The notes under the pieces were generated by a model that worked only from the letters and a program-made list of their open reading frames with translations, did no database searches and was not told where the DNA came from. A stretch of 43,091 nt of DNA from a phage: NCBI GenBank assembly GCA_021146305.1, contig GCA_021146305.1_4336.1; one strand, given 5' to 3'. The position numbers and the translations under genes were made by a program. Below, one piece after another: positions 6,648-31,062 of the stretch (position 1 is its first letter; each line of letters opens with the position of its first letter).

Positions 6648-6676
6648 TTGCACACCCCAATATAATAGTGTACTAT
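6648..6676 (+). promoter_or_regulatory. sigma70-like promoter with operator palindrome
   Basis: TTGCAC (6648-6653), 17-bp spacer, TACTAT (6671-6676); palindrome TAATAG-tgta-CTATTC (6663-6678) overlaps the -10; about 40 bp upstream of ATG 6718. Confidence 0.55.
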
Positions 6677-6717
6677 TCACTTACACCAACGATGTTATCC
6701 CAAACAGGAGCTACACC

Positions 6718-15880: not shown

Positions 15881-15909
15881 TTGCGCACCCCAATATAATA
15901 GGGTACTAT
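15881..15909 (+). promoter_or_regulatory. sigma70-like promoter with operator palindrome
   Basis: TTGCGC (15881-15886), 17-bp spacer, TACTAT (15904-15909); palindrome TAATAG-ggta-CTATTC (15896-15911); near-identical to the promoter at 6648-6676. Confidence 0.55.
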
Positions 15910-15936
15910 TCATTCTATCGAACCGGGGAGGCCGTC

Positions 15937-23660: not shown

Positions 23661-23857
23661 TAGTTATTCTCCAGTATTTCTAACGCTTTCACGATGTAAC
23701 GTTTACGTAAAACATCAGTCTGCGCGCTATTAGCCCTGCGTATGTAGCCCGCAGCAGCCCTCATCTGTAGTTTTTCCACCGAACCATTCCCTATAACTGA
23801 TGCGATACATTTAACTTCGAGTTCTTCGGTTATTTCTATCGTCGATACGTTGCCCAT
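23660..23857 (-). CDS. hypothetical protein sharing a domain with 25835-26275
   Basis: 65 aa; C-terminal AGYIRRANSAQTDVLRKRYIVKALEIL matches IGYIRRANSAMTDTLRRQYLSKALEEL in the other protein; GGAG RBS. Confidence 0.5.
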   Translation of the reverse strand: MGNVSTIEITEELEVKCIASVIGNGSVEKLQMRAAAGYIRRANSAQTDVLRKRYIVKALEILENN

Positions 23858-25834: not shown

Positions 25835-26275
25835 TCAGAGGTATCTCCCGCACGTTTCACATATTTTTGTACCAAACGGCGCGGAGCCATCTGTTACTAC
25901 ATAATAGTAACTGTGGCGGCATTCCTGCGCGTCTTCTTTCCGGCAACCGGATTTCTCAGGCGCATCCTTACATCCGAGTTCCTCAAGTGCTTTGCTAAGG
26001 TATTGGCGGCGCAGGGTGTCAGTCATTGCACTATTTGCCCGCCGGATGTACCCAATCGCGCCTTTAGGGTCCAGGTCAACGATTGAACGAAGACACATAA
26101 CCTCGTTTTCAGCGCAATCCAGCGCACAGGTTAGTTCCTTAATCTGCGCCGACGCGTCACGTAACTGATTCTTTAGTGACTGCACTTCATGCACCAGGTC
26201 TTCGCACTGGTTGCTGTTTACCTGCTGCCGTAGTTGGTCAATCAGGTACTCGAATACTTCGTTTTTGTTACTCAT
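25835..26275 (-). CDS. coiled-coil protein with shared domain and C-terminal Cys4 motif
   Basis: 146 aa; GAGGAG RBS; N-terminal coiled coil, central IGYIRRANSAMTDTLRRQYLSKALEEL shared with 23660-23857, C-terminal C-x7-C ... C-x2-C zinc-ribbon-like motif. Confidence 0.55.
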   Translation of the reverse strand: MSNKNEVFEYLIDQLRQQVNSNQCEDLVHEVQSLKNQLRDASAQIKELTCALDCAENEVMCLRSIVDLDPKGAIGYIRRANSAMTDTLRRQYLSKALEELGCKDAPEKSGCRKEDAQECRHSYYYVVTDGSAPFGTKICETCGRYL

Positions 26276-26306
26276 CTTCTGTCTCTCCTCTAGTTTGTGT
26301 AAATGA

Positions 26307-26335: not shown

Positions 26336-26356
26336 GTAAATTTTATTGGTGTTTGT

Positions 26357-26446
26357 ATTGTCGCATTTCCTGCAATAGTCGCTTGGATTGTTGCATCTCC
26401 TGCAATAGTCGCTTGGATTGTTGCGTTTGGTGAAAGTGTCGCTTTT
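26357..26446. repeat. 30-bp tandem direct repeats (2 near-identical copies + 1 degenerate)
   Basis: attgtcgcatttcctgcaatagtcgcttgg (26357-26386), attgttgcatctcctgcaatagtcgcttgg (26387-26416), degenerate third copy 26417-26446. Confidence 0.8.
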
Positions 26447-26468: not shown

Positions 26469-26490
26469 TACGCTGCTGTGTAGCAGCGTA
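26469..26490. other. perfect hairpin (9-bp stem, 4-nt loop)
   Basis: TACGCTGCT-gtgt-AGCAGCGTA; a second hairpin AGTGTCG-(8 nt)-CGACACT lies at 26435-26456; both downstream of small ORF 26513-26662 and may act as minus-strand terminator or protein-binding site. Confidence 0.5.
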
Positions 26491-26512
26491 AGTCACTAAG
26501 CCAAATATTAAC

Positions 26513-26662
26513 CTATTGACCTGTTACACCAGCTCCGGCTTGCACACCAGCTTTCCACGCCCGCCACGCGAGACGTGTCTTAACGTTCAGGTACTCTTTC
26601 TTCGAACCCTTGTTAACCGGCAGGCCCTCGACGACGGCCCACCGTTCGAATGCTTCTCTCAT
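26513..26662 (-). CDS. small hypothetical protein
   Basis: 49 aa read manually (MREAFERWAVVEGLPVNKGSKKEYLNVKTRLAWRAWKAGVQAGAGVTGQ); ATGA overlap with the upstream ORF. Confidence 0.35.
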   Translation of the reverse strand: MREAFERWAVVEGLPVNKGSKKEYLNVKTRLAWRAWKAGVQAGAGVTGQ

Positions 26663-26805
26663 ACCAGAACCTCGCATTCATCCCGATACACGAACAATAA
26701 TGACCCTTTGTACTCAATCATAAAACCATAATGGTTGCTGCTGAACGCCAGAAAAACATCACCTACCGAGATACCGAAATCTATAAGCCTGCGTCGAATT
26801 TTCAT
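26659..26805 (-). CDS. small hypothetical protein
   Basis: 48 aa read manually (MKIRRRLIDFGISVGDVFLAFSSNHYGFMIEYKGSLLFVYRDECEVLV); GGAGG RBS; TAATG coupling. Confidence 0.35.
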   Translation of the reverse strand: MKIRRRLIDFGISVGDVFLAFSSNHYGFMIEYKGSLLFVYRDECEVLV

Positions 26806-26993
26806 TAACGGCAACCTCCCTCAGAGTCGTCGGCACGAGCATCATGATTAGATGCCGTTCTCTCCCTCACTTCGACCATCCTTCCTACCTCTGCGGCGTA
26901 ATACACATACAGCTTTATTGCGTAATCTTTATTACTTGTCGTCTCTGAGATAACCCCGTCGACGTATACGTCATAAATTAATTCTCCCATCAC
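26805..26993 (-). CDS. hypothetical protein
   Basis: 62 aa, acidic C-terminus; ATGA overlap with the upstream gene. Confidence 0.45.
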   Translation of the reverse strand: MMGELIYDVYVDGVISETTSNKDYAIKLYVYYAAEVGRMVEVRERTASNHDARADDSEGGCR

Positions 26994-27175
26994 TTCGCCC
27001 CTTTGAATTTAAAATTGTTGCCGATGAGTTCTAAATCACATTTACGGAGTAACCCTTTGCCGTAACCTGCGACGCTATTAACCTCCACAAAACCGAACCA
27101 CATTAGCTTCGATTCTATTATCGTAAATAAATTGCCTGTAAATTTATTCCGCACCAATTGACCCTTCTTAAACAT
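26990..27175 (-). CDS. hypothetical protein, first gene of the leftward early operon
   Basis: 61 aa from ATG 27173-27175 with AAGGAG RBS; about 30 bp downstream of the promoter at 27211-27239. Confidence 0.5.
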   Translation of the reverse strand: MFKKGQLVRNKFTGNLFTIIESKLMWFGFVEVNSVAGYGKGLLRKCDLELIGNNFKFKGAK

Positions 27176-27210
27176 AACCCTCACTCCTTATGTCTCGTTT
27201 CGATAAGTGA

Positions 27211-27239
27211 ATAGTAGCCTATTATGTTGGGGTGTGCAA
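27211..27239 (-). promoter_or_regulatory. sigma70-like promoter with operator palindrome (leftward early)
   Basis: Minus-strand TTGCAC (plus 27234-27239), 17-bp spacer, TACTAT (27211-27216); palindrome GAATAG-tagc-CTATTA at 27209-27224. Confidence 0.55.
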
Positions 27240-27281
27240 GAGATTAGTTACGTTGCCGTTGTGATTCTTTTGTTTCTTTAA

Positions 27282-27337
27282 AGAGTACGCAACGCAGTGG
27301 GTGGGCGTTAGCCCACCCCAGCGGAGTGAAGTACTCT
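27282..27337. other. nested stem-loop in the early-left leader
   Basis: Outer inverted repeat AGAGTAC (27282-27288) / GTACTCT (27331-27337) enclosing inner hairpin GGGTGGGC-gtta-GCCCACCC (27299-27318). Confidence 0.45.
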
Positions 27338-27595: not shown

Positions 27596-27624
27596 TTGCT
27601 TTTACATTCACGCTATCCTATACT
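27596..27624 (+). promoter_or_regulatory. sigma70-like promoter (rightward early)
   Basis: TTGCTT (27596-27601), 17-bp spacer, TATACT (27619-27624); about 30 bp upstream of ATG 27656. Confidence 0.5.
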
Positions 27625-27655: not shown

Positions 27656-27838
27656 ATGCAGCATTACATGACACAGAATGAAGTGGCTGAACGTATCGGG
27701 GTGACACGTCAAACCATTAATAACTGGTTGCGCAGCGGTAAATTCCCTGATTGCTGTATTAAGGTTATGGGTCGCCGTTTACCAGGAACATTTGACCGTA
27801 ATAAAGTTGAAGCATGGATTAAGGAGAACGTGAAATGA
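27656..27838 (+). CDS. HTH DNA-binding protein (AlpA / excisionase-like)
   Basis: 61 aa from ATG 27656 with AGGAGA RBS; helix-turn-helix VAERIGVTRQTINNWLRSG. Confidence 0.55.
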   Translation: MQHYMTQNEVAERIGVTRQTINNWLRSGKFPDCCIKVMGRRLPGTFDRNKVEAWIKENVK

Positions 27839-31033: not shown

Positions 31034-31062
31034 GTCAGTTACTCCTTAGTCAGTTGATATGT

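Follow-up and report, generated by a model that had tools for sequence, protein, structure and literature searches.

The DNA analysed here, a phage contig of 43,091 nucleotides (nt) (GCA_021146305.1_4336.1 of GenBank assembly GCA_021146305.1; hereafter the window), carries four small open reading frames (ORF1 to ORF4) on its minus strand between positions 26513 and 27175. An earlier note, made from the letters alone, had presented them as tightly coupled ORFs and as the first genes behind a leftward early promoter at 27211-27239; the coordinates were confirmed, the coupling was borne out by the ribosome-binding sites (RBSs) and stop/start overlaps present in the sequence, and the position as the first genes of the leftward arm was supported. 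A 1.3-kb query around the four ORFs, searched against GenBank, identified the window as the genome of a Kagunavirus (Guernseyvirinae), an Escherichia coli phage. The query matched 236 phage records, Escherichia and Salmonella siphoviruses of the Guernseyvirinae and mostly of the genus Kagunavirus, at 85-97% identity and with a coverage of only 57-78% split in 4-8 pieces, indicating that the region is a mosaic. A public assembly contig of 43,132 nt encodes exact copies of all four ORF proteins, so that the window amounts in essence to one complete phage genome. The unit runs from a promoter through the four ORFs and a hairpin to a set of 30-nt repeats and the next promoter; its features, including two conserved junctions between gene slots, are as follows (aa, amino acids):

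27211-27239, minus strand: promoter P1, with −35 TTGCAC (27234-27239), a 17-nt spacer and −10 TACTAT (27211-27216)
26990-27175, minus strand: ORF1, 61 aa, with AGGAG 8 nt before the ATG
26979-27028, minus strand: junction 1, which takes in the final 12 codons of ORF1, a Shine-Dalgarno sequence (AAAGGGG), the overlap GTGATG and five initial codons of the following slot (M-E/G-E-L-I/F)
26805-26993, minus strand: ORF2, 62 aa from GTG, its start overlapping the stop of ORF1 (GTGATG)
26805-26990, minus strand: ORF2 from an alternative start, 61 aa from the ATG inside GTGATG
26803-26859, minus strand: junction 2, 57 nt (AACGGCATC..GACGACTCTGAGGGAGGTTGCCGTTAATG), comprising two small hairpins, the Shine-Dalgarno sequence GAGGGAGG and the next start codon
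26659-26805, minus strand: ORF3, 48 aa, with a TAATG overlap and GAGGGAGG 8-9 nt upstream
26513-26662, minus strand: ORF4, 49 aa, with an ATGA overlap and GAGG upstream
26469-26490, minus strand: hairpin UACGCUGCU-ACAC-AGCAGCGUA, which ends the unit after ORF4
26353-26442, minus strand: three 30-nt tandem units directly upstream of the −35 element of P2
26307-26335, minus strand: promoter P2, a second copy of the P1 motif, which opens the next leftward unit

All four ORFs matched PHROG families of unknown function, namely phrog_12538 for ORF1 (E 5e-17), phrog_30617 for ORF2 (E 3e-41), phrog_30395 for ORF3 (E 3e-34) and phrog_15836 for ORF4 (E 3e-33), and tblastn found them in 57, 40, 46 and 143 GenBank phage records, respectively. 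Nei-Gojobori comparison across relatives gave ratios of nonsynonymous to synonymous differences (pN/pS) of 0.15 for the body of ORF1 (seven sequences, pS 0.47), 0.16 for the body of ORF2 (four sequences), 0.18 for ORF3 (three sequences) and 0.08 for residues 1-40 of ORF4 (42 unique sequences). Taken together, the PHROG matches, the pN/pS values of 0.08-0.18 and the exact proteins in public assemblies establish that the four ORFs are real protein-coding genes under purifying selection. The remark in the earlier note that none of them belongs to a family nameable by eye was right as to function, while all four turned out to be already deposited as families of 'hypothetical protein' (PHROG).

To describe how the region varies, we compared it with 40 related loci from IMG/VR that were found via ORF4, a choice that inflates the frequencies of the ORF4 family. 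The frame common to these relatives consists of a divergent helix-turn-helix (HTH) gene, P1, an ORF1-family gene 63 nt later, a variable stretch, an element of about 57 nt, sometimes an ORF3-family gene, the first 40 codons of ORF4, a further variable stretch, the hairpin and P2. Scoring the 20-mers of the window over 39 relatives gave the following map, in which the figures are the fractions of relatives that share each stretch:

27281-27165, minus strand: P1, its leader and the first 8 codons of ORF1, shared by 0.8-0.9 with a brief dip near 27201
27161-27045, minus strand: body of ORF1, shared by 0.00-0.03
27041-26995, minus strand: end of ORF1 and start of ORF2, shared by 0.6-0.84
26991-26865, minus strand: body of ORF2, shared by 0.01-0.16
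26861-26815, minus strand: the 57-nt element, shared by 0.8-0.9
26801-26675, minus strand: body of ORF3, shared by 0.10-0.19 (mostly 0.18)
26671-26555, minus strand: N-terminal part of ORF4, shared by about 1.0, partly by sampling
26510-26470, minus strand: hairpin, shared by 0.93
26441-26375, minus strand: 30-nt repeats, shared by 0.7-0.88
26351-26295, minus strand: P2, shared by 0.8

The bodies of ORF1 and ORF2 together ranged over 0.00-0.16, with most values at 0.10 or lower. The four ORFs lay in the most variable part of the genome, and their alleles were found in many combinations: 11 ORF1 alleles and 9 alleles of the second slot occurred in 24 combinations among 34 genomes. The ORF1 allele of the window was paired with seven second-slot alleles, in a sample enriched for that ORF1 allele, and its ORF2 allele was paired with four ORF1 alleles. 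Over the 40 genomes, the cassettes of the relatives contained 3-9 ORFs from about 25 families, a few of them probably spurious; at 717 nt, the cassette of the window was among the shortest. The simplest reading of the mosaic pattern and of the allele reassortment would be that co-infecting relatives undergo homologous recombination at the junctions.

Both junctions are stretches of 45-60 nt that take in the 3' end of one gene, an RBS and the next start codon, are about 95% identical in about 120 GenBank phages, and are far more widespread (118-122 GenBank records) than the full ORF2 body (15 records). Junction 1 was almost invariant per nucleotide across 29 ORF1 alleles whose bodies were only 40-50% identical or could not be aligned, and pS over the last 13 codons of ORF1 was 0.000, as compared with 0.47 in the body. 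It was found in 118 GenBank phage records and is present as a single copy in the window. Junction 2 was found in 35 of the 40 relatives with unrelated flanks on both sides, and in 122 GenBank records (identity at least 90% in 121), again as a single copy per genome; treating the junctions as multi-copy intragenomic repeats of the PeSL (promoter-early stem-loop) type was rejected on that count. In most relatives junction 2 is read in frame as a 17-residue C-terminal tail (TASNHDARADDSEGGCR) on at least eight unrelated proteins. In five relatives, the in-frame ORF over it is just 18-30 aa long and the element is still retained, and the pN/pS of the tail is 0.61, corresponding to relaxed constraint at the protein level; these two observations argue that it is the DNA or RNA of junction 2, and not the peptide, that is conserved.

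ORF1 belongs to a near-core family, present in 36 of the 40 relatives. Its protein begins with MFKKGQLV and ends in a basic stretch (LIGNNFKFKGAK), both nearly invariant across the family, while residues 9-48 fall into 11 allele classes. Structure prediction and a fold search, as proposed in the earlier note, were run for ORF1 and ORF4; for ORF1 only a generic SH3/KOW barrel was returned, and for ORF4 no fold match. The ORF1 prediction was confident and consisted of a five-stranded SH3-like barrel followed by a Lys-rich disordered tail. Such a barrel is shared with the KOW/SH3-like domains of NusG/Spt5 (KOW), Tudor and ribosomal eL14/eL27 proteins, although their identity to ORF1 is only 13-22% and ORF1 stands alone with its Lys-rich disordered tail. 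No Pfam family matched ORF1 at E ≤1, the KOW model included, and profile searches of the PDB with the ORF1 and ORF4 alignments gave no match. The SH3/KOW-like fold is too common to indicate the function of ORF1. Positive selection on ORF1 was considered and rejected for the allele class of the window, in which amino acid changes show no overall excess (pN/pS 0.15). In 10 of the 40 relatives (L003, L004, L005, L016, L018, L029, L033 and L042-L044), an extra first gene of 67-72 aa that matches phrog_7673 ('internal head protein') lies between P1 and the ORF1 slot; it is not present in the window.

ORF2 is a rare allele of the second slot, with its final 17 residues (TASNHDARADDSEGGCR) encoded by junction 2; by tblastn, the full-length body was found in only 15 GenBank records and the tail alone in many more. 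ORF3 is an accessory gene of the third slot, and its 46 GenBank records fall in two clades; nine close homologues were found among 5.8 billion proteins, and the broad family was present in 22 of the 40 relatives. At 26787-26805 the window lacks three codons (ITD) that relatives have (L003, L010 and L012), and in L010 and L012 a tandem duplication is located at this very position; the stretch accordingly looks slippage-prone. The labels 'FeoA family protein' and 'glycosyl hydrolase', given to ORF3 homologues in source annotations, were set aside as unreliable; ORF3 had no Pfam or NCBIfam match. Of the four genes, ORF2 and ORF3 are swappable, and the near-core families are those of ORF1 and ORF4.

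The product of ORF4 combines a helix-loop-helix module, with the pattern FExWA...Y...T..AWxAW, and a variable Gly/Ala tail, and AlphaFold2 predicted helices in it at residues 2-12 and 21-46 (predicted local distance difference test score, 77). Its homologues in the 143 GenBank records come from phages of Escherichia, Salmonella, Raoultella and Klebsiella, and the family is narrow, with 20 clusters among 1.84 billion representatives; it was present in 39 of the 40 relatives, which were sampled through it. PF26207 appears in the precomputed annotation of 47 of 53 ORF4 homologues, one of them 98% identical to ORF4, and a BFVD search with ORF4 recovered a close homologue only. In other proteins the ORF4-type module occurs alone, in tandem or fused N-terminally to DUF551 (P0146), and a separate DUF551 gene (Pfam E 2e-20) directly follows ORF4 in 33 of the 40 relatives (e.g. 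L006-L046). No DUF551 gene was found in the window between ORF4 and the hairpin (26491-26512), nor a DUF551 domain in ORF4; a Gly/Ala-rich tail of ORF4 takes the place of DUF551 in the window, where the hairpin directly follows, and in a few relatives. ORF4 appears to share the FExWA...AWxAW helix-hairpin module of the PF26207 proteins of enterobacterial phages and prophages, where it often precedes DUF551, and differs from them in that the window is without DUF551; no function has been demonstrated for the module or for DUF551.

The conserved block around P1 spans about 27193-27281. The 15-nt core of P1 occurs eight times within three mismatches in the genome, against 0.94 expected, and the full 32-nt promoter motif (cTTGCaCACCCCAAtATAATAGgnTACTATTCA) is present in four near-identical copies, at 6665 and 15898 on the plus strand and at 26304 and 27208 on the minus strand, and is kept in 80-94% of 39 relatives. 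As a 48-nt direct repeat (77% identity, 904 nt apart), P1 and P2 flank the four ORFs together with the hairpin. The units preceded by the motif would be of the kind driven by a host-polymerase early or moron promoter, and the four-ORF unit would then probably be expressed early.

The copy at 6665-6679 (plus strand) precedes a superinfection-immunity-like ORF, followed by an exonuclease, a polynucleotide kinase and a deoxynucleoside monophosphate (dNMP) kinase. The copy at 15898-15912 (plus strand) precedes a 114-aa gene of unknown function that is embedded in the structural arm and set against the direction of the structural genes, and three degenerate versions of the −10 part are found at 31062, 31106 and 33655 (minus strand). 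On the other side of P1, a perfect GC-rich hairpin, GGGTGGGC-GTTA-GCCCACCC, is located at 27299-27318, with no U-tract on either strand, in a region of about 380 nt between P1 and a likely divergent rightward promoter (TTGCTT-17 nt-TATACT, about 27596-27624); the block around this hairpin is common to only about one third of the relatives.

The hairpin that follows ORF4, a 9-bp stem with a tetraloop, was compared across 44 related loci, and its stem was invariant in all 44 and its loop in 43. The 91-nt region that includes it folds at −24.3 kcal/mol (z = −2.2). A T-rich tract (TCATTTTTCTCATTTTT) follows the hairpin in 30 of the 44 loci, while the window and 13 others are T-poor at this position; in the window only 3 of the 10 nt after the stem are T, and a generic terminator scan made no call. 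In phage Snoke this hairpin bears a terminator annotation, and the relatives that bear TCATTTTTCTCATTTTT fit the definition of an intrinsic terminator, suggesting that it is probably a terminator or attenuator. Because of the T-poor tail, termination in the window is probably partial, and the strength of termination ahead of the next unit may itself be an allelic trait, with two alternative tails. Two of the three 30-nt units carry a TTGCA-N5-TGCAA palindrome, and the repeats are unique in the genome and kept in 70-88% of relatives. Their appearance is that of putative operator sites, perhaps bound by the product of the divergent HTH gene at 27656-27838. After P2 come a 146-aa gene (25835-26275), further small genes, two holins and the endolysin. 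Past these lysis genes, at about 23690-23824 on the minus strand, the 146-aa gene has a partial paralogue, 51% identical to it over residues 56-100, and L013 has a similar second match.

We therefore favour, at a probability of about three in four, the reading that the four ORFs form one short transcription unit in a cassette that is reshuffled slot by slot at the start of the leftward arm. Host RNA polymerase would initiate at P1, as suggested by its sigma-70-like hexamers and by the reuse of the motif before other non-structural units, and the four genes would be translated as a coupled chain through their RBSs and stop/start overlaps of 1 or 4 nt. Transcription would reach the hairpin, which is invariant genus-wide, a canonical terminator in most relatives and probably leaky here, and P2, behind the operator-like repeats, would start the next unit, which leads to the lysis genes. 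The cassette would be an array of slots, with the near-core ORF1 barrel and ORF4 module at its ends and interchangeable small genes (ORF2 and ORF3) between them; the position-specific junctions of 45-60 nt would part the slots, and gene bodies would be exchanged there by recombination between co-infecting relatives. The proteins would most likely act early in infection as small binding modules on host or phage macromolecules.

Several points weigh against this reading. P1 matches the sigma-70 consensus at only 8 of 12 positions and was missed by a generic promoter scan, and the poor U-tract after the hairpin of the window makes termination there uncertain. The sole Kagunavirus transcriptome found names only the neighbouring HTH gene as early; three other early genes are left unnamed, and its supplements contain no expression table (PMC12645636). 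Recombination at the junctions is deduced from the pattern, and selection on translation-initiation regions or RNA structure could also hold them constant. The relatives were picked through ORF4, and the set for ORF1 allele A was enriched on purpose.

The earlier note had proposed the four genes as candidates for host takeover or for countering host defence. The position, the plasticity of the region and the early-type unit agreed with this proposal, while the lack of similarity to known families and the restriction sensitivity of the genus did not. Under this explanation, which is compatible with the cassette reading and which we regard as tentative, the proteins would inhibit host defence or shut off the host, and the turnover of alleles would reflect an arms race. 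The genes are small, stand first in an early-type unit and occupy the most plastic region of the genome; ORF1 has at least 11 deeply divergent alleles, each under purifying selection, as specificity variants would be; and the first slot of 10 of the 40 relatives holds the phrog_7673 gene. However, no similarity to anti-defence, defence or host shut-off families was found in Pfam, PHROGs, NCBIfam or the PDB (dbAPIS and AntiDefenseFinder were not searched), and PADLOC, which covers defence systems only, gave no significant match with any of the four proteins. The best hit of the Pfam, NCBIfam and PADLOC scans, to a coronavirus S1 model (E 0.005), was judged spurious. A scan of the whole window with Rfam gave zero matches. 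The fold matches were generic or absent, the ORF1 and ORF4 families are near-core and not accessory (the ORF4 count being inflated), and ORF1 shows no overall nonsynonymous excess. In addition, Kagunavirus isolates are highly sensitive to restriction-modification systems and variably to Old (PMC11990801). Two such isolates of the BASEL collection, Bas70 and Bas74, carry ORF1 homologues at 88-90% identity, which argues against a broad anti-restriction activity.

It is also possible, though we would not expect it, that ORF1 and ORF4, together with the usual DUF551 partner of the latter, serve the early programme of the phage itself, for example by modulating replication or the elongation or termination of transcription, and would not counter host defence. 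Their presence in 36 and 39 of the 40 relatives (the second figure inflated by sampling), the very strong purifying selection on ORF4 across phages of four host genera, and the location of the unit upstream of a leaky terminator ahead of the lysis arm speak for such a role. Against it, no KOW motif is detected by Pfam, a housekeeping function would not usually go with allelic divergence as extreme as that of ORF1, and DUF551 has no established function and is not in the window.

A further explanation, which we consider unlikely, is that the junctions are conserved mainly as functional RNA, as structured translation-initiation regions or processing sites, with the mosaicism as a by-product. Each junction includes the Shine-Dalgarno sequence of the gene that follows, together with its start codon, and alignment folding of junction 2 gave two hairpins, the second overlapping the Shine-Dalgarno sequence, with 97% of cells paired; its persistence over the ORFs of 18-30 aa in five relatives also fits. 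Covariation was weak, however, amounting to one event in which two adjacent pairs change from AU/UA to GC/CG in L004 and L016, and the pair and type counts were equalled by about 10% of shuffles. Moreover, the conserved stretches are far longer than an RBS requires, and the abrupt change from conserved to unrelated sequence at either side, combined with free reassortment, requires recombination anyway.

Finally, that the ORFs are chance open frames in non-coding regulatory DNA is hardly credible, for although they are very short, have no Pfam or NCBIfam match and lie in a region conserved at the nucleotide level over large parts, this is already contradicted by their low pN/pS despite substantial synonymous divergence of the bodies (pS 0.2-0.47), and also stands against PHROG E-values of 5e-17 to 3e-41, conserved RBSs and overlap coupling, and the confident fold predicted for ORF1.

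Returning to the cassette reading, the four ORFs and about 20 sibling cassette families are worth keeping in annotations as real genes, despite the 48-62 aa of the former. Since Kagunaviruses are small, easily engineered and represented in the BASEL collection, the cassette is a ready test system, with defined swap points and natural alleles, for the roles of first-expressed small phage proteins and for whether short junctions channel recombination. Should an allele prove to counter a defence or to hijack a host factor, the natural allele series would provide ready specificity variants. We consider it distinctly improbable that the junctions are no leftovers but dedicated exchange sites of a genus-wide circulating library of at least 20 small early effectors, swapped slot by slot, in which the deeply divergent ORF1 alleles and the genes of slots 2 and 3 would be specificity variants directed at variable host factors, defence systems among them, and the 17-residue tail shared by at least eight unrelated proteins might be a functional tag; such a library would be functionally like an integron, working through ordinary homologous recombination and without an integrase.

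Among known systems, the region can be compared with the PeSL cassettes of the hyperplastic regions of T4-type phages, which contain repeated sigma-70-like early promoters and stem-loop terminators (PMC2839356, PMC4122927). As in these cassettes (Arbiol et al. 2010; Comeau et al. 2014), short units of small ORFs of unknown function are found between promoters and stem-loops, and close relatives differ by replacement at short conserved sequences, which is ascribed to homologous recombination. A repeated promoter appears to be present here too, in the four near-identical 32-nt copies, two of which bracket the ORFs. In PeSLs, promoter and stem-loop terminator make up one compact motif; here the hairpin, with a U-tract that is good in 30 of 44 loci and poor in the window, lies about 135 nt upstream of the −35 element of P2, with the 30-nt repeats between them. 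Most breakpoints fall not at the promoter/hairpin motif but at position-specific, single-copy, intragenic junctions, so that the region works like PeSL shuffling without being a member of the PeSL class. That the junctions are single-copy and position-specific favours exchange between genomes in the same slot over shuffling within a genome. Unlike PeSLs, they leave shared N- and C-terminal peptides on unrelated proteins, and the phage itself is a 43-kb siphovirus unrelated to the T4-type carriers.

In lambdoid phages, short conserved sequences at gene boundaries part interchangeable modules and neighbouring alleles reassort, as observed here. This boundary 'linker' mosaicism was reportedly described by Susskind and Botstein in 1978, Juhala et al. 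in 2000 and Clark et al. in 2001. By comparison, the scale of exchange in the present region is that of single genes of 50-100 aa, and its junctions are about 95% identical in about 120 genomes. Anti-defence genes in the early operons of other phages, such as T7 gene 0.3 (Ocr) or the anti-CRISPR operons, are, like the four ORFs, small, first behind an early promoter and subject to high turnover. They differ in that no sequence or fold relationship to them was found, that no dedicated Aca-type regulator is present here and that the host-range phenotype of Kagunavirus speaks against strong anti-restriction. Taken together, these comparisons place the region as an ordinary, though unusually tidy, example of the known mosaicism of phage early regions, and not as a new kind of system.

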